From contig CAXMOL010000106.1 of NCBI GenBank assembly GCA_964194935.1, forward strand, positions 2,058 to 66,057: 64,000 bases of DNA. The letters run 5' to 3'. Below the pieces are notes generated by a model. That model worked only from the letters and a program-made list of their open reading frames with translations. It searched no databases and was not told the origin of the DNA. The DNA comes from an uncultured Kiloniellaceae bacterium (lineage in GTDB: Bacteria; Actinomycetota; Acidimicrobiia; Spongiisociales; UBA11373). The position numbers and the translations under genes were made by a program. This document shows positions 3,913 to 18,686 of this stretch, piece after piece (the first letter of the stretch is position 1; every line of letters begins with the position of its first letter).

Positions 3913-5103
3913 ATGCTGAAATCGCAACAGATGAGAAAACGGATCGCTCTCCATCTGTCGGTTCTGATCATCGGCGGCGCCGTGATCAGAGTCGCTGTTG
4001 TTCCCGCTGAGGTTTGTCCTCCAGTGACGGCACTCGAGGTTTCTGCCTCTATCGAGGCCGCCACGACGTGGCTGGTCGGGGGAATGGCCGACGATGGCAC
4101 GTACACCTATGGCTTCGATCGCAACGAAGATGTCATCAATCAGGGCTACAACTACGCCCGACATGGCGGTGTCACCATGGCGCTCTATCAGGCGTACGAG
4201 GTCATCGGTGATCCCGACCTCCTTGCCGCGGCCGATAGAGGGCTGGCTCACGCCCTCAACGACATAGTCGAGCACGGTGGCTGGATGGGATGGCAGCCCG
4301 GCGGGGATATCCCGCTCGGCGCCAACGGTTTGCTGTTGGCGGCGCTTTCGATTCGACGTAGGGCCACCGGCGACCCGATTCATGATGAGTTGATGCGCGG
4401 CATTGGCCGGTTCTTGGTGGGCCAGCAACAGGAGAACGGGAGCATCTTTGCCTCCTGGGACATCCGTGCGGAAGAGCCGCGGGAGTCGTTCGGTCCGTTT
4501 GCCACCGGTGAGGCTGCGTGGGCACTTGCCCTACTCGATCGTCAGATGCCGGGCGAGGGGTGGGGAGACGCAGCCGGGCTGACCCTTGACTACATGGGTG
4601 AGGACCGCAACCGCCTTGAAGGCTACGCCACAAGCCTGCCTGATCACTGGGCTGCATATACGGTCAGCGATATTCGCCCCGATCTGCTCACGACGGGCCG
4701 CGTTGAGTACGCCAGGCGCCTCGCCGGCTATTTCGGGATTCGGTTGCGGTTCGAGGCGCAGCGCCGTGGGGACGGGATCAACCTCTGGTTGCGTTGGTAT
4801 CCGGGTCCACCAGCAGGGGTTGGCACAGCCGGTGAGGGGATTGGGGCACTGCATCGGCTCAGCGTCGAGGAACCGCGTCTGGCGGATCTGACCGCGGCGA
4901 TTGAGGAGCGATTGGTGTGCACTGCCGGGTTCATGGTCCGGCGTCAGATCTCGGCAGACGAGGCCACTGGTGGGGCGACGACGTCACTGGAGTCGGGAGC
5001 CTGGTTCTATCGGGGCTATACCCAGATGGATGATCAGCAGCACGTGTTGTCGGCGCTTCTGTCGGCGCTTCCCGTGCTGGAGGCGATGGAGGAGGTTGGA
5101 TGA
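3913..5103 (+). CDS. Hypothetical membrane-anchored protein, possibly with an alpha/alpha-toroid (prenyltransferase/squalene-cyclase-like) repeat fold
   Basis: 396 aa. An N-terminal hydrophobic segment (LHLSVLIIGGAVI) is followed by Gly/Trp-rich repeats (GGWMGWQPGG, QQQENGSIFASWD, GEAAWALALL) resembling QW-type toroid repeats. The start may be the second ATG at 3931. An ATGA overlap with the next gene suggests translational coupling. Confidence 0.45.
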   Translation: MLKSQQMRKRIALHLSVLIIGGAVIRVAVVPAEVCPPVTALEVSASIEAATTWLVGGMADDGTYTYGFDRNEDVINQGYNYARHGGVTMALYQAYEVIGDPDLLAAADRGLAHALNDIVEHGGWMGWQPGGDIPLGANGLLLAALSIRRRATGDPIHDELMRGIGRFLVGQQQENGSIFASWDIRAEEPRESFGPFATGEAAWALALLDRQMPGEGWGDAAGLTLDYMGEDRNRLEGYATSLPDHWAAYTVSDIRPDLLTTGRVEYARRLAGYFGIRLRFEAQRRGDGINLWLRWYPGPPAGVGTAGEGIGALHRLSVEEPRLADLTAAIEERLVCTAGFMVRRQISADEATGGATTSLESGAWFYRGYTQMDDQQHVLSALLSALPVLEAMEEVG

Positions 5104-10270: not shown

Positions 10271-11863
10271 TCATTCGCCGGCGGCGGTGGCTGTACTCAC
10301 ACGTGGGTCGGCCGCGGCGGTCCTAACCCCATCAGCGTCGATGGCTATCACTGAAACGGGGCCCCAACCGGGGGTGTTGGCCGGCCCCGGCAGGATCGTA
10401 TGACCTAGCGCGCCCAGGCCGGTGATGACGTGTTCCGGCATCCCGGATTCGACCTGAACAGCAGGCCCTTCGTCGGTGCCCTCGATACTCCACCTTGGGA
10501 GTGCCTGGGCTTCGATCGGGTCGAGTTCGGCGATCAGCATGGCGGCCACCATCTGTGCGAGGTATTGCGGTTGTTGGTCACCCCCGCGAGTCCCAAGGAT
10601 GAGCGCAGGTTCGTCGCCTCTGGTCCACAGTGTCGGCGCCAAGGTGTGTAGTGGTCGCTTGCCGGGCCCTGCTTCATTGGGGTGTCCTGCGGTCACCGAG
10701 AAACCTGCGGCGCGGTTGTGGAGAAATACCCCGGTCGAGCCGGCGGAGATCCGGCTGCCGATGCCGAAGTAGTTGGACTGGATGCATGAGACCGCCATGC
10801 CGTCGGCGTCGATTGCGCAGAAAAAGGCCGTGCCGGCTGGGCCTGGAGTCGGTTCTGGCCAGTCGGCGACTGCGTTGGGAGCGATAGCCTGGAGACGCTG
10901 ATCCAGCCGTTCGGAAGCTAGATATTCAGAGAGTTCCCATGGAAGGTGATCCGGATCTGCGACCACGTCGTTTCGTTCCCAGGCGAAGGCTCGATAGGCC
11001 TCTATCACCGCGTGATGGAAAGCGGGATCAGTCGCATCGGCTGGTGGGCCGAGTCGTTCCAGCACCCAGGCGGCAGCGAGCGTGATGTACCCCTGGCTGT
11101 TCGGCGGGATGGTCCAGCCGGTGAGGCCGAACACATCGATACTCAGTGGTTCGACCCAATCAACGTCATTGGCGGCGAGGTCCTCGGTGGTGAGCACGCC
11201 CTCCGTGGCCTTGGCGACCGCTGCGGCGATGCTGCTCTCATAAAACCCCGCTCGCCCGTCTGTGGCGATGGTTTCCAACGTTGCCGCTAGGTCTCGTCGT
11301 CGGAGAGTTGCGCCAGCTCTGGGGGGTGTGCCGTCGGGGTACAGGGCTTCCGCCGACGGTTGACCAACGAGGGAGTCCGCCAACCGTTCGAGCGTTTCGG
11401 CGAACTCAACCGATACTTCGAAGCCCTCTTCACCCAATGCGATCGCATCCGCCAGAACTGCCCTGAAGTCGAGCCGTCCGTGTCGATCCTGTAGTGCCGC
11501 CCATCCGTCGACGCATCCCGGTACCGAGATTGTGGACGTTCCGTAGGTGGGCATTCGAGTATGTCCTGCCTCCCGTAGCGCCGCTGCGCTGAGACCCGAT
11601 CCACCCCTGCCGCTCGCATTGAGCACGTCGGGTCGATCCATCCCGGGTTGGTGGACGATGGCAAAGAGGTCCCCGCCGATTCCGCATGTCGATGGGAGCA
11701 CCACTCCGAGGACTGCGTTGGCCGCAATTACTGCATCGGCGGCCGAACCGCCCGCGTCCATTGCTCGCAGCGCGGCGGCGGTTGCTTCATGGTGGGGGGT
11801 CACGGCAACTGCGCCGGTACCGGAGTAGCTGGAGATCTTGGGCGTCAAGGCGTGAGGCTCCAT
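10271..11863 (-). CDS. ggt: Gamma-glutamyltranspeptidase (Ntn-hydrolase)
   Basis: 530 aa. The N-terminal domain reads ...SGGSAADAVIAANAVLGVVLPSTCGIGGDLFAIV. The catalytic Thr region is TAFFCAIDADGMAVSCIQSNY and the oxyanion region is GTRGGDQQPQ, as in the GGT family. Confidence 0.85.
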   Translation of the reverse strand: MEPHALTPKISSYSGTGAVAVTPHHEATAAALRAMDAGGSAADAVIAANAVLGVVLPSTCGIGGDLFAIVHQPGMDRPDVLNASGRGGSGLSAAALREAGHTRMPTYGTSTISVPGCVDGWAALQDRHGRLDFRAVLADAIALGEEGFEVSVEFAETLERLADSLVGQPSAEALYPDGTPPRAGATLRRRDLAATLETIATDGRAGFYESSIAAAVAKATEGVLTTEDLAANDVDWVEPLSIDVFGLTGWTIPPNSQGYITLAAAWVLERLGPPADATDPAFHHAVIEAYRAFAWERNDVVADPDHLPWELSEYLASERLDQRLQAIAPNAVADWPEPTPGPAGTAFFCAIDADGMAVSCIQSNYFGIGSRISAGSTGVFLHNRAAGFSVTAGHPNEAGPGKRPLHTLAPTLWTRGDEPALILGTRGGDQQPQYLAQMVAAMLIAELDPIEAQALPRWSIEGTDEGPAVQVESGMPEHVITGLGALGHTILPGPANTPGWGPVSVIAIDADGVRTAAADPRVSTATAAGE

Positions 11864-11933: not shown

Positions 11934-12587
11934 CTACGGGCGCCCGATCCTCCGGTTTACCGCGTTGAGCACGGCACGTACCGCCGTTTCTGACTCGTCT
12001 CCGCTGCTCAATGCGGATCCAACGGACATTTCCTCGCCACGCTCGCCTGTTGCGACGACGACTGCAACGATCACCGTCTTCATCCCGATGGCGGGATTGC
12101 CTATCGAATCCAGGGCCAAGACGTCGTCCCCGAGGAGTGATTCGATGGCCCGCAGTGCCGCCTCGCCGACCAGGCGCAGCCGAGCCGACTGCGCCGCGGG
12201 GCCGGTGGCGGTCCCGGCGTACTCCTCGCCGTGCCACCCCAATGTCACCGCAACCGTTGTGCGTGGCCCCTCGGGAATCTCGTGGACGCCCATGATTGCC
12301 GGCCGATCATCGTCGGCGGCGATCGAATCCAGCCCGATCTGCACTACTGAGATGACACGCCGATCGAGCGTGATACCGAATCGGGCGAGCGCCACCGTCT
12401 GCACGTCGCGAACGACCTGCTTTGGCGCCTTTTGCGGAGACGCGAGCACGTGGACCTCGGTCACATCATCGCCTTCAGTCGCAACCCTGACTGCGGTGAT
12501 CGAGGGGAGCCGTGCCAACGTCTCTTCCAGCTCTTGCGTGTCCATCGAGAGCAACCCTTCCACCACAAAGCGTAGCCAACCGGACAC
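11934..12587 (-). CDS. Hypothetical protein with three internal roughly 50-aa repeats
   Basis: 217 aa ORF with good codon usage and three similar segments (ITAVRVATEGDDVTEVHV / RTTVAVTLGWHGEEYAG / MKTVIVAVVVATGERGEEM). No family is assigned. The start may be the internal MDTQELEE. Confidence 0.4.
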   Translation of the reverse strand: MSGWLRFVVEGLLSMDTQELEETLARLPSITAVRVATEGDDVTEVHVLASPQKAPKQVVRDVQTVALARFGITLDRRVISVVQIGLDSIAADDDRPAIMGVHEIPEGPRTTVAVTLGWHGEEYAGTATGPAAQSARLRLVGEAALRAIESLLGDDVLALDSIGNPAIGMKTVIVAVVVATGERGEEMSVGSALSSGDESETAVRAVLNAVNRRIGRP

Positions 12588-12757
12588 CCTCTGTCACTCC
12601 GGCCAACCGGGCAGCACACGTAGTACGGAATCCAGGTATTGTGTCGGTGGGCGGACGTCATCCCCTGACCCGGGGGTGCGTCCGCTTTGTTGTGTTCAAG
12701 GGGCCTCTGGCCAGCTTGGACCGGTAGCGGGAGGGTCGTGAGACCGCCCCATTTGGC

Positions 12758-12821
12758 GTGTGCCCCGTGGCACACATTGACAAGTGAAGGTGGGCATTGA
12801 TCGTGCCGATGGAGACATTGA
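12758..12821 (+). promoter_or_regulatory. Candidate operator/promoter block: palindrome GTGTGCC-ccgt-GGCACAC followed by three CATTGA(C) direct repeats at about 20-21 bp spacing
   Basis: gtgtgccccgtggcacaCATTGAcaagtgaaggtgggCATTGAtcgtgccgatggagaCATTGAcacgg lies in the 450-bp divergent intergenic region upstream of the HD-domain operon leader. Confidence 0.4.
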
Positions 12822-12940
12822 CACGGTCAGCGACCCCGGGTTGCCCGGGTCACCTGTACGGCTAGCCCTCGACGAGTGAAGCGGATATCCACTGCGAAAG
12901 CGGTGAGACTTCTCCAGAAAGGGAACCGGAGGTGATTCAA

Positions 12941-13009
12941 ATGGTTGACCGTGGGAAGAAGACCAGTGAGATCTGCCGGCAGTACAGCATGGGCTGGCGT
13001 GTCGGCTAA
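12941..13009 (+). CDS. Candidate small ORF / leader peptide (22 aa, MVDRGKKTSEICRQYSMGWRVG) in the leader of the HD-domain operon
   Basis: The ATG is preceded by a near-perfect Shine-Dalgarno sequence GGAGGTGA with a 5-nt spacer. The ORF ends at TAA 13007-13009, 31 nt before the ATG of the downstream gene, which itself lacks a recognisable SD. Confidence 0.3.
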   Translation: MVDRGKKTSEICRQYSMGWRVG

Positions 13010-13040
13010 GTGACTGACCCGGGCGGCCCGCTACCTGCTT

Positions 13041-14336
13041 ATGAACTCAAAACAGATCGACCGTAGAACCGCAATTCTTGCCGCCGTATCGGCTGGGGCG
13101 GGTGCGGTTGTAGTCGTTGTGCTCTTCGTTCTTCAAAGCGACCCTCACCCTCTCTGGTTGTGGGGGACCTTTGCCGTCGCTTTTGTAATCCTGGAATTCT
13201 GGTCGGTCGAGGTAAACGACCGCCTCTTTATCTCGTCCTCGATCATGGTTGCGTTCAGCGGCATGGTTATTTTCGATCGGGACAGCGCAGTGCTGGCCGT
13301 CACCCTCATGGCTGCCGTCGCGGTACTTCACCCCGAGGACCTCCGTCTGCGGAGATGGCGCCAGCCTGCCTACAACTTTGGCCAGTTGGTGCTGTCCACG
13401 GCCATCGGTGCGCTGGTTCTATACCCCTTCTTGCCCCAGAGCACTCTGCTCATCTCCGACGTTCCGGTGCTGGTCGGCGGGGCCGCGCTGGCGTCCCTTG
13501 TCTACAACTGGGTCAACTTTCGTCTGGTCGCCCTGTACGTGAAAGTGGCCTACCCGGATCGTTCTCTCCGGCCTTGGTCCCGGATGTTGGCCAATCATCT
13601 GGTTCACGCCGTGCTGGGGGCCTACGGGGCCTTGATCGGAGCCGCCTATCTGCTGGTCGGCCCTGCGGCACTGCCGATGGTCGTCGGCACTTTCCTGATC
13701 GGACACTCAGGTTTTGCCGTCTATTCCCGGATGCGGCAGGCCCACGAGGACACGGTGAGCGGATTCGTAAAGGCGGTCGAGGCACTTGACCCGTATACCA
13801 AGGGGCACACCGAACGCGTTGCCCAGTTCTGTCGAATGGCCGGAGAACGTCTTGGGCTCGATCCGGATCAGCTCGAAGTGCTGCGATGGGCCGCGCTGAT
13901 TCACGACGTGGGAAAACTCGCCGCTCCGCCGGATCTGATCAGCAAGGAAGGCCCGCTCGGGGATGATGAGAAAGCCAGGCTTGAGCGAAGCGTGCGAGTC
14001 GTCGAGGAGTTGTTGGGCCAGGTTGACTTCCTTGCGGCTGCGGTCGCTGCTATCTCGAGAAGTGAGGTCCCCGAGATCCCTCGTCCGATCATTGCCCGGA
14101 TATTGGGTGCGGCGGACGATTTCGACTTGATGACCAGCACCCGGTCGTATCGATCGGCTCGATCCCAGTCGGCTGCGTTCGAACAGCTCCGCGCAGATGA
14201 GAGGCGACACGGTGTCGACGTCGTGACAGGCCTCATCGAGACCGTTGCGAGTGGCGAAGTCGTGTACGGACCTCCGGACGAAGAGACCTTCGCCGAGGTC
14301 GAGCGTCTGGTGCAAGAGAGGTCTCGTCGTGCGTAG
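13041..14336 (+). CDS. Multi-TM membrane protein with a C-terminal HD-superfamily phosphohydrolase domain (degenerate HD-GYP / PgpH-like). Candidate cyclic-dinucleotide phosphodiesterase.
   Basis: About 7 predicted TM segments, then HTERVAQF...AALIHDVGKLAAPPDLISKEGPLGDDEKARLERS (HD-GYP-like H..HD.GK..P..IL.KPG.L...E pattern) and ADDFDLMTSTRSYRSA (DxxDAMxSxRPYR motif). The canonical HHExxDGxGYP segment is absent. Confidence 0.75.
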   Translation: MNSKQIDRRTAILAAVSAGAGAVVVVVLFVLQSDPHPLWLWGTFAVAFVILEFWSVEVNDRLFISSSIMVAFSGMVIFDRDSAVLAVTLMAAVAVLHPEDLRLRRWRQPAYNFGQLVLSTAIGALVLYPFLPQSTLLISDVPVLVGGAALASLVYNWVNFRLVALYVKVAYPDRSLRPWSRMLANHLVHAVLGAYGALIGAAYLLVGPAALPMVVGTFLIGHSGFAVYSRMRQAHEDTVSGFVKAVEALDPYTKGHTERVAQFCRMAGERLGLDPDQLEVLRWAALIHDVGKLAAPPDLISKEGPLGDDEKARLERSVRVVEELLGQVDFLAAAVAAISRSEVPEIPRPIIARILGAADDFDLMTSTRSYRSARSQSAAFEQLRADERRHGVDVVTGLIETVASGEVVYGPPDEETFAEVERLVQERSRRA

Positions 14337-15519
14337 TCGCGTGATTTCGGTGGTCCTGGTTGTCGTGCCCTTGACTGTCGGGGGAGCGACGGCTGTCGCG
14401 TGGTGGCCGGGGATCGAATTCCCTGCTCTGGTCGTGACCTATTTGGCGGCGTATGTGGTGACGACCCCGACTGCGCCGGATCGAAGGGTGTCGCTCTCGA
14501 TGGGTGTTGCCGGGGCAATTGCTCTAATGAGCGGCGGATCGCTTGTGGTGGTGCTCGGTCCGGCCGCGATCGCCCTTCCTCTTGGCCGACTGATCGTGCA
14601 CGTCCGCCACGGGCCCCGAGTAGCCCGCGACATGTTTCCGGCTGAGCCAATCGGCGTGCTGGTGTTTGCTTTGGGGTTCGCTGGAGGCCTCTTGACCGTG
14701 TCCTCCACCAGTCCCGCTCATCCGGGAGTTCTGGCCGTCTTTGCGCTTGCTGCCATCCTTGGGTTCGGCGCGACCGTGTTTGCGAGGTCCCTGTTCTCCG
14801 AGCAACGACGCGTGGTGGCGCGTCGCCTAATAGCGTTGCGGACGCTCGAGGACTGGCCCGCCTATACGATCGTGTACTCGTCTGTCGCCTTGTTCGCCGT
14901 CACGGCCGAGCCAATGGGATGGTGGGCAGTACCGCTCGCCGGGCTCCCATATCTTTTCTCCTATGTGTCGCTGCACCGACTCCAGGGCACAAGGCGCACC
15001 TACGACCAGACCATTCGAGCCCTTGGGGCTATCCCGGAGGCGAGCGGTCAAGTGGTGAGCGGGCATTCAGCACGAACCGCCGAACTTGCCGTGGCGGCAG
15101 GCGCCGAGATTGGGTTGGGTGCCTCTGAGCTGGGACGGCTCGAGTACGCGGCGCTACTGCATGACATCGGTCGAATCGCTCTTGCCAACCCGACTGTTGG
15201 TAGCGACTACTCGTTCAGCGACGTGGCAGGTTGGAGCGCGGCGATCATCGGTGAAGCGAAGTACCTCGAGAAGGTTGCTGCGATAGTTGCCCGCCAGCAC
15301 GCTCCGTATCGAAGAGAGGGCCAGGTTCGGGATCAAGACGTGACACGGTCGTCGCAACTGATTCGGATCGCAGCGCGTTACGACAGCGATGTTGCCGAGG
15401 GTGCGGCGCCTATGGAGGCAATGGAGGTGTTGCATCAGGGGGCGGCTTATGACTACGACCCCGAGTTGGTGATGGCTCTGCGACGGGTACTGGAGCGGCG
15501 CGGAGCGTTCGCCGCCTAG
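14329..15519 (+). CDS. Second, paralogous multi-TM HD-domain membrane phosphohydrolase (degenerate HD-GYP-like)
   Basis: N-terminal TM region, then HSARTAELAVAAGAEIGL...LEYAALLHDIGRIALANP (HD motif) and ...ARQHAPYRREG. The likely GTG start at 14329/14341 overlaps the TAG stop (14334-36) of the upstream paralogue, so the 14245 start of the tracked ORF is probably too far upstream. Confidence 0.7.
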   Translation: MRSRVISVVLVVVPLTVGGATAVAWWPGIEFPALVVTYLAAYVVTTPTAPDRRVSLSMGVAGAIALMSGGSLVVVLGPAAIALPLGRLIVHVRHGPRVARDMFPAEPIGVLVFALGFAGGLLTVSSTSPAHPGVLAVFALAAILGFGATVFARSLFSEQRRVVARRLIALRTLEDWPAYTIVYSSVALFAVTAEPMGWWAVPLAGLPYLFSYVSLHRLQGTRRTYDQTIRALGAIPEASGQVVSGHSARTAELAVAAGAEIGLGASELGRLEYAALLHDIGRIALANPTVGSDYSFSDVAGWSAAIIGEAKYLEKVAAIVARQHAPYRREGQVRDQDVTRSSQLIRIAARYDSDVAEGAAPMEAMEVLHQGAAYDYDPELVMALRRVLERRGAFAA

Positions 15520-15534
15520 CAGCGGTCGGTAACC

Positions 15535-15560
15535 TCAATACCTCGGTAGTGAGGTATTGA
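15535..15560 (+). promoter_or_regulatory. Perfect 10-bp inverted repeat (TCAATACCTC-ggtagt-GAGGTATTGA) overlapping the start codon of the crotonase gene
   Basis: Read directly at 15535-15560. It lies 16 nt after the stop of the second HD-domain gene and includes the TTG start at 15557. There is no downstream U-tract. Confidence 0.4.
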
Positions 15561-16330
15561 TCGTGCTGCATTACGAAGTAACACCGCCCCGAGCGACCAT
15601 CACGATGGATGATCCCGGGAGGAGAAATCCTCTGTCCAACGCCGCCATGGCTGAGATGGCCGGCTTCGTTGACGCCGCTGCCAGCGACGACGAGGTGCGG
15701 GTGATCGTGATCACCGGTGCCGGGGATCAGGCGTTTTCTGCGGGGGGTGATCTCAGCGCCGGGTTCGTTGACGATCCACTGGCCGGCCACGACGATCGGG
15801 GGGCACTTGCCGCACTGTTCCGCTCAATGAGGTCGGCCGGCAAGCCGACGGTCGCCCGAGTAAATGGCCATGCCCTGGCTGGGGGCTTTGGTTTGGCTGC
15901 AGCTTGCGACGTCGTGATTGCTGTTGACGAGGCCACCTTTGGAACCCCCGAAATCAAGGTGGGCCTTTGGCCAATGATGATCACGGCCATCTTGCAGCGC
16001 GTCATGCCTCACAAGGCGGCTCTCGAGCTGATGATGACCGGGCGCCGAATCTCGGCGGAGGAAGCGCTGCGCCTTGGTGTGGTCAGCCGGGTGACTTCGC
16101 GTGCTGAGTTGGATGCAGCGGTCGATCTCGTGGTTGATTCGCTGGTTGCCATGAGTCCGGCGATTCTGCGAATGGGCCGAGATGCATTCTTCGCTGTGGA
16201 GGACTTGGACTTCGATACGGCAATCGGCCACCTCCACAGCGGGTTGACAGCTGTCGCCGCGACCGAGGATGCAGCCGAAGGTGTCCGCGCCTTTCTCGAA
16301 AAGCGACGGCCGGACTGGCGCGGTCGGTGA
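15557..16330 (+). CDS. Enoyl-CoA hydratase/isomerase (crotonase family)
   Basis: 257 aa. VIVITGAGDQAFSAGGDLS..., ...VARVNGHALAGGFGLAAACDVVIA and ...GLWP are the crotonase-fold signatures. TTG/GTG start. Confidence 0.8.
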   Translation: MIVLHYEVTPPRATITMDDPGRRNPLSNAAMAEMAGFVDAAASDDEVRVIVITGAGDQAFSAGGDLSAGFVDDPLAGHDDRGALAALFRSMRSAGKPTVARVNGHALAGGFGLAAACDVVIAVDEATFGTPEIKVGLWPMMITAILQRVMPHKAALELMMTGRRISAEEALRLGVVSRVTSRAELDAAVDLVVDSLVAMSPAILRMGRDAFFAVEDLDFDTAIGHLHSGLTAVAATEDAAEGVRAFLEKRRPDWRGR

Positions 16331-16812
16331 AAGACGGCGCCACCAAGCGCTTTCGACCGTCGGCCAAGGCAGTCGTAGTGGCCGACGGGCGGTTGCTGGT
16401 TACTCGCAATCGGACTCCGGCCGATCCCGGCCCCGATTGGTACATCTTGCCGGGCGGGGGACAACACCTCGGCGAAACTCTCGAGGCCACCCTGGTGAGA
16501 GAAGTCCGCGAGGAAACGGGGGTCGAGGTGATCCCCGGACCCTTGCTCTGGATACGTGAACTGATCGTGGCGCTGCGTCCCGACTGGCCGTTCGACCCCG
16601 GCGATCATGTCCTCGAATTCATGTTCGCCGCCGCCTATGTCGCCGACCATGGGGATGGTCATGAGGAGGACCGCTATCAGGTCGGCGTTGAATGGGTTGC
16701 TGTCGACGCCCTGGCTGATCTGCGGTTCTATCCGTCTGCCGTCGTTCCGTCTCTGCGAGAGCACATAAACGGTGGGAGTTCGGGCCCGATCTATCTCGGC
16801 GACACTTCCTAG
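16327..16812 (+). CDS. NUDIX hydrolase
   Basis: Nudix box GGGQHLGETLEATLVREVREETGVEV (GX5EX7REUXEEXGU). The GTG start overlaps the crotonase stop (GTGA). Confidence 0.8.
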   Translation: MKDGATKRFRPSAKAVVVADGRLLVTRNRTPADPGPDWYILPGGGQHLGETLEATLVREVREETGVEVIPGPLLWIRELIVALRPDWPFDPGDHVLEFMFAAAYVADHGDGHEEDRYQVGVEWVAVDALADLRFYPSAVVPSLREHINGGSSGPIYLGDTS

Positions 16813-16922
16813 GCGGGTTTGGTGCGCCGGCTGTACTCGACCCAGTTCCGCTCGTGCGTGCCGCGTTGCTGGTCGTGGGGTGTCCTACGCTCGGAGTCGA
16901 TGCTTGTTGGATTCCAGCGCAC

Positions 16923-18686
16923 ATGACTTGGGAGGCGTGGCTGACCCTTGGCGTGATCGCGATCACAGTCACGCTGTTGATCCTCGACCTAACCGCCCCT
17001 GCGGGAGTGGTTATGGGAGCCGTAGTCGCCTTGTTGGTGCTCGATGTGCTGGAGCCCGCACAGGCGTTTGCAGGATTTAGCAACGCCGCTCCGATCACCG
17101 TCGCCGCCTTGTTCGTCGTCGCGGCCGGCATCGAGAGGACCGGTGTATTGAACCGACTGGTCGACATCGTGGCTGGGCGGTCTGCTGGGGAGCGGATGAC
17201 GTTGGCCCGGTTGGTGGCGCCGTCGGCCGCAGCGTCTGCCTTTCTGAGCAACACCCCGATTGTGGCGATGCTTGCTCCAGCGGTGGGCCGATGGTCGGAG
17301 CGGGTTGGTCGCCCCGTCAGCCGGTTGCTGATGCCGCTCTCGTTTGCCGCGATCCTGGGCGGCATGGTCACCGTTATTGGCACTTCAACCAACCTCGTCG
17401 TCTCCGGCTTGTTGGAAGAGGCCGGTTTTGAGGCGTTCGGATTCTTCGAACTAGCCAAGCTGGGGCTGCCGGTGGCACTCGTTGGTCTCGTGTTCGTCGT
17501 GTTCGCCTCGCCTGTTGTGCTGCCGACCCGACGTTCGGCCCGGAGCGATATCGAGGACTCACGTGAGTACACAGTCGAGATGACGGTTGTACCGGAGGGA
17601 CCCGTTGACCGGATGACGGTCGAAGAGGCCGGACTGCGCCATCTCGCTGGTGTGTTCTTGGTTCAGGTTGAGCGTCAGGGCAATCTGGTGGGGGCGGTTG
17701 CTCCCGACTTCACGCTTCGCGGTGGCGACACGTTGCGATTCGTCGGAAACGCTCTCGAGGCTGCCGATCTGCAAGAGCGAGCCGGGCTCGTCCCGGCCGC
17801 CGAGACCGGCGGGGGCATCCCTCCGGGCCGGATGGCGTTCTTCGAGGCGGTGGTGGGTGCCGGATCGGCCCTCGTGGCCCGATCGTTGCGTGACATCGGA
17901 TTCCGCCAGCGGTATCGGGGCGCGGTTCTGGCGATTCATCGGGCTGATCAACGTGTGCTCGGCAAGCTCGGCGACGTCGAGCTACGGGTTGGTGACACCT
18001 TGCTGCTTCTCGCTGCACCGGAGTTCCGTGCCAGGTGGCACGGAACTGGGGACTTCCTGATGGTTTCACAGCTCGCTGGGACCGAGCCGGCCCGCTCTAC
18101 AAAGGTCGGCCCTGCTGCACTGGTCGGAGGCGCTGTGATCGGTACGGCCGCGACCGGGCTGTTGCCGATCCTTGAGGCATCGCTACTCGGGGCGTTCGCA
18201 ATGGTCTTGCTTGGAGTGCTGACTCCCAGCGAGGCGCGACGGGCAGTAGATCTAAACGTCGTGGTGTTGATCGCAGGTTCGTTCGGGCTCAGTGCCGCGA
18301 TTGCGGCTACCGGTCTTGCGGCGACGGCCGCCGATGGGTTGGTTGTAGCCCTCGATGGGTTGGGCACTCCGGCGGTACTGGTAGGTGTCGCTCTGCTGAC
18401 GCTTGTTTTGACTGAAGCGGTAACCAACAACGGGGCAGCGGTACTCGTGTTCCCCGTCGCGATAGCGGTTGCGGCGGAAGCCGGTGCCGATCCTCGTGCG
18501 TTTGCGGCGACCGTCGCGCTTACTGCCTCCGCCTCATTTCTTACCCCTATCGGATATCAGACGAACACGATGGTGTGGGGTCCCGGTGGTTACCGCTTCG
18601 GCGACTACTCGCGACTCGGCTTTCCACTAACACTGTTGACCCTCGCGGTGGTGGCCTTGGTGGCGCCTCTGTGGTGGTCGCTCTAG
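16923..18686 (+). CDS. DASS/SLC13-family anion:cation symporter with two internal TrkA-C domains
   Basis: About 590 aa. N-terminal and C-terminal transmembrane halves flank a central soluble region with two TrkA-C-like segments. The start is chosen at ATG MTWEAWLTLGV; the tracked ORF begins 69 nt upstream. Confidence 0.7.
   Translation: MTWEAWLTLGVIAITVTLLILDLTAPAGVVMGAVVALLVLDVLEPAQAFAGFSNAAPITVAALFVVAAGIERTGVLNRLVDIVAGRSAGERMTLARLVAPSAAASAFLSNTPIVAMLAPAVGRWSERVGRPVSRLLMPLSFAAILGGMVTVIGTSTNLVVSGLLEEAGFEAFGFFELAKLGLPVALVGLVFVVFASPVVLPTRRSARSDIEDSREYTVEMTVVPEGPVDRMTVEEAGLRHLAGVFLVQVERQGNLVGAVAPDFTLRGGDTLRFVGNALEAADLQERAGLVPAAETGGGIPPGRMAFFEAVVGAGSALVARSLRDIGFRQRYRGAVLAIHRADQRVLGKLGDVELRVGDTLLLLAAPEFRARWHGTGDFLMVSQLAGTEPARSTKVGPAALVGGAVIGTAATGLLPILEASLLGAFAMVLLGVLTPSEARRAVDLNVVVLIAGSFGLSAAIAATGLAATAADGLVVALDGLGTPAVLVGVALLTLVLTEAVTNNGAAVLVFPVAIAVAAEAGADPRAFAATVALTASASFLTPIGYQTNTMVWGPGGYRFGDYSRLGFPLTLLTLAVVALVAPLWWSL

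Follow-up and report, generated by a model that had tools for sequence, protein, structure and literature searches.

Two translationally coupled, degenerate HD-GYP membrane proteins in Acidimicrobiia as a candidate cyclic dinucleotide receptor

What becomes of a cyclic dinucleotide phosphodiesterase that lacks the motif its family is named for, and why would two such proteins be encoded back to back? The question is raised by a 64,000-nucleotide stretch of contig CAXMOL010000106.1 (GenBank assembly GCA_964194935.1), here called the window, from an uncultured bacterium that GTDB places in the Acidimicrobiia. Two adjacent genes in it, A and B, each encode a multi-pass membrane domain followed by a stalk helix and an HD-GYP-type cytoplasmic domain. 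The reading favored here, with a probability of roughly 55%, is that A and B together make up a heteromeric receptor, in a 1:1 ratio, for cyclic di-GMP (c-di-GMP) or a close cyclic dinucleotide, which would bind its ligand without hydrolyzing it, as DvhD does. Of the classes of c-di-GMP enzymes, HD-GYP proteins are understood least, and the comparable Streptomyces pair hdgA/hdgB is without a known role.

The two genes are tandem and overlapping. The open reading frame (ORF) of B first opens at a TTG (14245), and the in-frame GTG that overlaps the stop codon of A is the start used by relatives. A purine-rich AGAGAGG resembling a Shine–Dalgarno (SD) sequence lies ahead of B, within the 3' end of gene A. 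The overlap in the window, GTGCGTAG, belongs to an 8-nucleotide RTGnnTRR type found at 39 of 50 A/B junctions, and 8 more junctions have overlaps of 14, 4 or 1 nucleotides. Because the overlap is kept in related loci, the GTG start of B and the translational coupling are taken to be real and conserved. An earlier note, made from the letters of this DNA and a list of its reading frames, had proposed exactly such a coupled tandem pair, overlapping at a GTG, and had called the two proteins paralogs. The latter point also holds: BLASTP aligns A and B at 22% identity over 135 amino acids in the first part of the HD domain (E 1e-9), and in a profile–profile comparison the two families align end to end over 374 columns with a probability of 99.5%. 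The profiles of the cytoplasmic halves alone align with a probability of 99%.

By sequence and predicted fold, the cytoplasmic domains of both proteins are assigned to the HD superfamily, and within it to the HD-GYP branch. Protein A matches the Pfam families HD_5 (PF13487) at 4.6e-18 (66 bits) and HD (PF01966) at 3.3e-10, and protein B matches HD at 1e-6 (29 bits), with HD_5 at 26.7–27.0 bits, slightly below its cut-off (cut-offs are 27.2 bits for HD_5, 22 bits for HD and 24.3 bits for MASE9, PF20972). Among relatives of B, 20 of 21 match HD_5 at E ≤ 0.01. In NCBIfam, both A and B match an HD-GYP response regulator best, and only along their HD-GYP part; NCBIfam matches to the Cas3 HD domain were discarded as weak and generic. 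When compared with PDB sequences, A finds DvhD at the top (9rbz/9rc0, 3.4e-14), along with PmGH (4mcw), V-cGAP3 (5z7c) and a c-di-GMP phosphodiesterase (4r8z), and B and its family profile find V-cGAP3 (profile 3e-10) and DvhD. An AlphaFold model of B, built from a 66-sequence input, has a mean predicted local distance difference test (pLDDT) score of 89.3 and a predicted template modeling (pTM) score of 0.81. It comprises about eight membrane helices with a β-hairpin, a 60-residue stalk helix and a helical domain. Its top PDB folds in Foldseek are DvhD (9rc0/9rbz) and PmGH (4mcw), with target-normalized TM-scores of 0.66–0.70 for the isolated domain. All PDB sequence and fold matches of A and B at or below the reporting cut-off of 0.01 are HD-GYP proteins. 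Profile searches and the model of B, kinds of check that the earlier note had proposed, agree on this placement.

The membrane domain of the pair is probably, judging by matches among relatives of A, of the MASE9 type and not of the 7TMR-HDED type of PgpH. TM1467 and Streptomyces HdgA are the proteins from which MASE9 was defined, as a membrane sensor of eight segments, two of them short (bioRxiv 10.1101/2021.11.05.467447). The hydropathy profile of A fits this definition, with 8 membrane segments of which two (63–77 and 82–96) are short. MASE9 is matched by 4 of 12 A-family members (best 2.6e-8), and two relatives at 70–76% identity (P0002 and P0016) exceed the 24.3-bit cut-off; in the B family, 0 of 21 members match it. 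The seven-helix topology once suggested for the pair is right in being multi-pass, but the helix count is about eight by the hydropathy of A and the model of B.

Catalytic residues were judged by the Galperin & Chou model of HD-GYP domains and by PROSITE PS51832. In PmGH numbering, the metal ligands are H189, H221, D222, H250, H276, H277 and D305, with E185 added for trinuclear sites only. Residues of A were mapped onto PmGH (4mcw) through a phmmer alignment whose offset was verified at KPG, H250, D305 and R314, positions described in bioRxiv 10.1101/2021.11.05.467447; the ligand map of A rests on this alignment, and structure models were made for B and for the neighboring gene U. Window A retains four of the seven metal-ligand residues: H256 (H189), H288 and D289 (H221 and D222) and D359 (D305). 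The three that are missing are all histidines, with S317 at the H250 position and no histidine at the place of H276 and H277 (SRSE); Y252 stands at the E185 position. The nucleotide-contact residues are retained, namely K292 (K225), K302-E-G304 (the KPG loop) and R368-S-Y370-R371 (R314, Y316 and K317). The canonical HHExxDGxGYP segment had been noted as absent from both proteins, and its place is indeed taken by ISRSEVPEIP in A and ARQHAPYRREG in B. An HD-GYP-type layout had likewise been described for both, but its DxxDxMxSxRxYR element occurs in A only, as AADDFDLMTSTRSYR, and B has AARYDSDVAEG at that place.

Residue counts over 160 A-type and 159 B-type proteins place the window in a wider pattern. 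No A-type (0/160) or B-type (0/159) protein has G[YF]P at the position of GYP. The first histidine and the HD dyad are kept in 155–159 of the A-type and 151–153 of the B-type proteins, and R368, Y370 and R371 of the RxYR motif in 158–160 of the A-type proteins. D289 is replaced by E or G in 5 of 160. The three additional histidines are intact (HHH) in 33 of 38 A relatives less than 50% identical to the window protein, and are mostly lost in relatives at least 60% identical, in which RSR is found in 19 of 52 and SSE and other replacements also occur. All seven ligands are kept by most of the A relatives that lie outside the window clade; the ancestral A is therefore likely to have been active, and the RSR and SSE replacements in the window clade suggest relaxed constraint on catalysis. 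On these counts, A appears to be a nucleotide binder, with a metal centre that decayed in this lineage.

B is far more degenerate. Among the metal ligands, window B retains only H246, H278, D279 and H324 (H277). The first three are about 95% conserved in the B family and H324 80%, the segment bearing H250 is deleted, and the D305 position is Ala or Ser. R282 is present, and the KPG loop and the guanine-binding RxY[K/R] motif are missing. The family has invariant residues of its own (D298, W302, P326-Y-R328, G331 and AYDYDP). As judged from this conservation, B is a long-standing pseudoenzyme. The earlier note had named the absence of metal-binding residues from both copies as what would refute it, and measured in this way both copies in this genome are impaired, each keeping four ligands. 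Its suggestion that one copy may be inactive is therefore too mild. Its term receptor–phosphodiesterase pair would probably be better replaced by receptor pair for the same reason; a heteromer with an inactive partner is plausible.

The pair had been thought unusual, yet it is conserved across Acidimicrobiia and other Actinomycetota, and both families are abundant in Acidimicrobiia metagenomes. Synteny was counted on one-genome-per-species contigs, using only loci with room on the relevant side. B follows A in 47 of 55 loci, and U precedes A in 40 of 46. In metagenome-assembled genomes labeled 'Actinomycetes', the order is A-B-U on one strand. In one related locus (L059; related loci are designated by L numbers), a canonical A (HHHERCDGEGYP) accompanies U, and B is degenerate. 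Bacillota loci, Natranaerobius thermophilus (L082, NZ_CP144220.1) and two further contigs (L083 and L084) carry U, then a single canonical MASE9-HD-GYP gene (HHHERWDGxGYP) and then a DUF5317 gene, and the cassette lies between hpf and secA in L083 and L084. These arrangements make plausible a series that runs from a single canonical enzyme, through an enzyme with a degenerate paralog, to the Acidimicrobiia state in which both copies are degenerate. The middle state, as in L059, matches the published hdgA/hdgB pair of Streptomyces venezuelae.

In that species, hdgA (vnz24090) and hdgB (vnz24095) are adjacent, encode membrane-bound proteins, probably form an operon and have no deletion phenotype (PMC6205966; PMC13232838). 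HdgA has transmembrane segments and an HD-GYP domain, and HdgB has transmembrane segments and a degenerate HD-GYP domain without GYP (PMC6205966). A and B share with them adjacency on one strand of an actinobacterial genome, an N-terminal multi-pass domain, an HD-GYP domain at the C terminus plus a degenerate second member lacking GYP, and the membrane domain of HdgA is an experimentally studied example of MASE9 (bioRxiv 10.1101/2021.11.05.467447). The likeness in architecture and gene order was drawn from published descriptions; compared in this way, A/B is best described as the Acidimicrobiia version of an HdgA/HdgB-type operon. The two systems differ in that the HD-GYP domain of HdgA is conserved, whereas in A both GYP and three of the seven metal-ligand residues, all histidines, are gone. 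The 8-nucleotide overlap, the divergent U gene, the leader and a small ORF were found here and are undescribed for hdgAB.

Other HD-GYP proteins illustrate what such a pair might do. DvhD from Desulfovibrio vulgaris (PDB 9rbz, 9rc0) is a metal-free HD-GYP membrane receptor that binds c-di-GMP without cleaving it, dimerizes through its stalk helix and signals by conformational change (PMC13090378). Like A and B it is membrane-anchored with an HD-GYP domain lacking metal ligands, and it is the top sequence match of A and the top fold of the B model. Unlike them, it is the product of one gene, carries dCache and PAS domains and forms a homodimer, where the window has two diverged, coupled paralogs. 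DvhD also keeps GYP and has SQ in place of HD, and it controls a Lap-like adhesin protease, none of its partners being present at the A/B locus. V-cGAP3 from Vibrio cholerae (PDB 5z7c) joins a degenerate regulatory HD-GYP domain to a second HD-GYP domain, but does so in one soluble polypeptide whose C-terminal domain is a fully canonical phosphodiesterase of cyclic GMP-AMP (cGAMP). MASE9-HD-GYP proteins such as TM1467 of Thermotoga maritima share the domain order and the roughly eight predicted membrane segments, two of them short (bioRxiv 10.1101/2021.11.05.467447). They differ in that each is encoded by a gene standing alone, without a degenerate paralog, and has its catalytic motif intact; the relatives found here in Bacillota belong to this canonical type.

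As a receptor, the pair could work as follows. The gene overlap would supply roughly equimolar A and B, which would associate through their stalk helices and HD-GYP domains, as the PmGH and DvhD dimers do (PMC13090378). The nucleotide would be bound through A and not turned over. Its occupancy may be coupled to the membrane domains, as in DvhD or LapD, or a membrane signal may be coupled to a partner. U, with a fold like the regulatory domain of LeuA, would be a likely soluble partner or second ligand sensor.

Several points weigh against this proposal. The membrane halves of A and B, taken alone, are weakly alike, aligning colinearly with an hhalign probability of 28% (P 6e-4), and window A itself has no MASE9 match in Pfam at E ≤ 1. 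At the HH position the phmmer and family alignments are one residue out of register with each other, though no histidine stands there in either. Loss of the GYP tyrosine, a phosphate-ring contact, might weaken c-di-GMP binding. The proposed A/B heterodimer is drawn from the overlap of the two genes and from the homodimers that other HD-GYP proteins form, and Streptomyces HdgB interacts with itself in a two-hybrid assay (PMC13232838). Finally, A may have some residual or altered hydrolase activity, because the minimal H...HD...D tetrad that it keeps suffices to hold one metal in classical HD hydrolases.

That tetrad underlies the first and main alternative, in which A is still an active phosphodiesterase and B its regulatory pseudoenzyme partner, as in V-cGAP3. 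Such an enzyme might use a single metal, or E342 or other substitute ligands, and its substrate might be cGAMP, pGpG or another nucleotide in place of c-di-GMP. The retention of H256, H288, D289 and D359 together with K292 and RxYR fits this picture, as do the complete ligand sets of most A relatives outside the window clade. V-cGAP3 itself pairs an inactive with an active HD-GYP domain, the B profile aligns with both of them, and HdgA, with an altered RxxK motif, reportedly still hydrolyzes c-di-GMP (personal communication cited in bioRxiv 10.1101/2021.11.05.467447). We nevertheless consider an active A unlikely, given that non-ligand residues replace H250, H276 and H277 in most members of the window clade, that D289 is itself replaced in 5 of 160 A-type proteins, and that GYP is missing throughout the A family. 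In the HD-GYP phosphodiesterases studied so far, the metal centre is bi- or trinuclear (bioRxiv 10.1101/2021.11.05.467447), and DvhD, without these ligands, is inactive (PMC13090378).

Under a second alternative, A and B are independent homodimeric sensors with separate inputs and outputs, and the overlap serves co-expression only. Their low identity, barely alignable membrane domains and separate sets of invariant residues are in keeping with this, as is the self-interaction of HdgB. But in the loci sampled B is hardly ever seen without A, and the exact 8-nucleotide overlap is kept where the proteins are only 40% identical, which across such diverged lineages argues for stoichiometric coupling. 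B also has no recognizable ligand-binding feature, as would befit a dependent partner. Two independent sensors are therefore quite improbable.

The earlier note had assigned the pair to the PgpH class, in which a 7TMR-HDED domain (PF07698) is fused to a classical, non-GYP HD domain. A pair of PgpH-like c-di-AMP (cyclic di-AMP) phosphodiesterases shares only the general outline of a multi-pass membrane domain before an HD-superfamily domain and is barely tenable, being already refuted as far as family membership goes, because neither A nor B matches PF07698 in Pfam at E ≤ 1, the best Pfam and NCBIfam matches are HD_5 and the HD-GYP response regulator, every PDB match at or below the 0.01 cut-off is to an HD-GYP protein and the relatives carry MASE9; c-di-AMP hydrolysis of the PgpH kind loses its support with the class assignment.

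With the heteromeric receptor as the preferred reading, it can be asked what is new about the pair. The HdgA/HdgB arrangement is already known, if uncharacterized, and A/B is a variant of it. New here are the apparent catalytic impairment of both copies in this lineage and the embedding of the pair in a conserved, undescribed context of U, leader and micro-ORF. Tentatively, A and B may be one face of an undescribed signaling module common to Actinomycetota and Bacillota. It would consist of U, a structured leader RNA, a hydrophobic micro-protein of 26–29 amino acids whose ORF lies inside a covarying helix masking the start of the gene that follows, and a MASE9-HD-GYP protein succeeded by a degenerate paralog in Actinomycetota or by DUF5317 in Bacillota. 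U and the micro-protein would be subunits or regulators, the leader a new cis-regulatory RNA that possibly senses a ligand, and the Acidimicrobiia enzyme would have turned into a pure receptor. The pairing of an enzyme with a degenerate paralog is old, probably stoichiometrically coupled and widespread in Actinomycetota. Its apparent stepwise catalytic decay provides a natural system for the change from phosphodiesterase to receptor, a change recently shown by structure for DvhD, and the candidate partners U, the micro-protein and the leader provide handles, in both phyla, for finding the signals into and out of MASE9-HD-GYP proteins. The features of the window are listed in Table 1.

Table 1. 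Positions of the A/B gene pair, its leader and gene U in the window (aa, amino acids)
Feature	Position	Strand	Details and basis
Gene A	13041..14336	+	431 aa; ATG 13041, TAG 14334-14336; ORF list
Gene A membrane domain, probably MASE9-type	~aa 1-226, 13041-13718	+	MASE9 matches in A relatives
Gene A HD-GYP-family domain, after stalk helix	~aa 229-404, 13725-14252	+	Pfam HD_5, PmGH 4mcw alignment, family residue counts
Gene B	14329..15519	+	396 aa from GTG 14329-14331; Pfam HD, AlphaFold model
Gene B membrane domain, eight helices	~aa 1-215	+	AlphaFold model
Gene B long stalk helix	aa 176-238	+	AlphaFold model
Gene B HD-GYP-fold domain, strongly degenerate	~aa 220-390	+	Pfam, Foldseek, residue statistics
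Start/stop overlap	14329..14336	+	GTG of B 8 nucleotides before the end of the TAG of A
Leader of gene A, ~400 nucleotides	12637..13040	+	Nucleotide conservation across loci
-10-like TATTGT, conserved TANNNT box	12637-12642	+	
5' hairpin GGGCGGACGTCATCCCC...GGGGGTGCGTCCGC, then T-run TTTGTTGTGTT	12649-12685, with tail to 12696	+	
Conserved block TTGACAAGTGAAGG	12777-12790	+	
Conserved block AGTGAAGCGGA	12875-12885	+	
Long-range helix, TGCCCGGGTC paired with GACCCGGGCG	12842-12851 with 13016-13025	+	RNAalifold
Extended helix	12828-12860 with 13010-13040	+	Masks region right before the ATG of A
Small leader ORF, 22 codons	12941..13009	+	SD GGAGGTGA at 12928-12935
Gene U	11934..12545	-	203 aa from conserved MDTQELEE start; ORF extends to GTG 12587

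The spacer between U and A, which holds the leader, is conserved in nucleotides among loci whose A proteins share only 50–75% identity. The leader has a minimum free energy z-score of −3.4, and gene A has no SD sequence of its own. In the leaders of the distant clade, RNAalifold missed the long helix as MAFFT had misaligned the 5' part, and cognate and non-cognate duplexes were compared instead. Over 35 loci, mean duplex energies are −38.2 kcal/mol for cognate strands, −29.1 kcal/mol for non-cognate strands and −25.7 kcal/mol with a shuffled 3' strand. Helix strands can be fully compensated, as in GCTGCCCAAGC/GCTTGGGCAGC of L030. Rfam gave no relevant match for the whole window at the gathering threshold, for 12400–13200 at E ≤ 10 or for 14 related loci, so the leader is not a known c-di-GMP, c-di-AMP or other riboswitch. 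It is a candidate new cis-regulatory RNA, and its structure may gate expression of the genes that follow.

A scan of 12400–15700 for sigma-70 promoters and terminators yielded nothing useful in the leader. The TTGACA at 12777 was rejected as a promoter element, having no -10 partner and being conserved jointly with GTGAAGG. The 5' hairpin resembles a terminator placed at the leader's extreme 5' end, or else a stabilizing 5' stem, and the top of its stem covaries among L004, L006 and L010. Two Acidimicrobiia clades have in common an AGYGRAGCGGA sequence and the block TTGACAAnTGAAGG, each with a hairpin after it.

The small leader ORF ends 0–5 nucleotides from the extended 3' helix strand. A ribosome terminating at its stop could open the helix over the start region of A, which would make translation of A dependent on translation of the small ORF. 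In the window, the ORF has a strong SD sequence and a hydrophilic product. It was rejected as a conserved peptide at its full 22 codons: L006 breaks the longer frame, and conservation in the window clade is confined to the last six codons (M-[GS]-W-[RK]-[VI]-G-stop, 12989–13009; MGWRVG-stop in the window). In the distant Acidimicrobiia clade, the small ORF has 29 codons, encodes a hydrophobic peptide and is free of indels in 18 loci, with conservation by codon position of 0.72/0.82/0.54, lowest at the third. Counterparts of 26–28 amino acids occupy the same place in Bacillota-like contigs (L083 2805–2885; L084 ~4879–4960), and the relatives (L012–L050, L083 and L084) share the consensus MKxK...LAxxxxAGxAxx[KR][IV]G. 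The 26–29 amino acid ORF of these relatives has a coding-type conservation pattern, and the window ORF is by this comparison a remnant of such a hydrophobic peptide gene. None of the gene lists for these contigs annotates it.

Gene U, transcribed divergently from A, encodes a soluble protein and is more conserved than A or B, at 71–97% identity among the relatives listed. It has no family in Pfam or NCBIfam and no PDB sequence match, the only match being one to Lin0512_fam at 0.015, and ten distant U-family members gave no Pfam match. A profile search places the family in at least 2270 representative clusters at 50% identity, and in both Actinomycetota and Bacillota it is associated with MASE9-HD-GYP genes. 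The model of U (pLDDT 82.9) has a small α/β N-terminal domain followed by two β-β-β-α units. Foldseek matches its C-terminal half to LeuA (1sr9, 3hpz, 3fig) and to the citramalate synthase LiCMS (3f6g, 3f6h), and this half of the model resembles the regulatory domain with which LeuA and citramalate synthase bind amino acids.

In Bacillota, the place of B is taken by the DUF5317 membrane protein (L083 4168–4725; L084 6277–6837; L082). DUF5317 was considered as a relative of the A/B membrane domains and set aside, with no detectable similarity between them. Genes around the pair in the window, which has a G+C content of about 62%, lie at 15557–16812 (+), 16854–18686 (+) and 10271–11863 (−) and encode an enoyl-CoA hydratase, a NUDIX hydrolase, a CitMHS/TrkA_C transporter and a gamma-glutamyltranspeptidase. 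In L001 (70% identical), the NUDIX, CitMHS/TrkA_C transporter and gamma-glutamyltranspeptidase genes are syntenic. In L005, at ~3920–3970, the end of the small ORF is present twice in frame (GWKIG-SPID-GWKIG-stop), which suggests a tandem duplication of the unit of terminal codons and helix strand.

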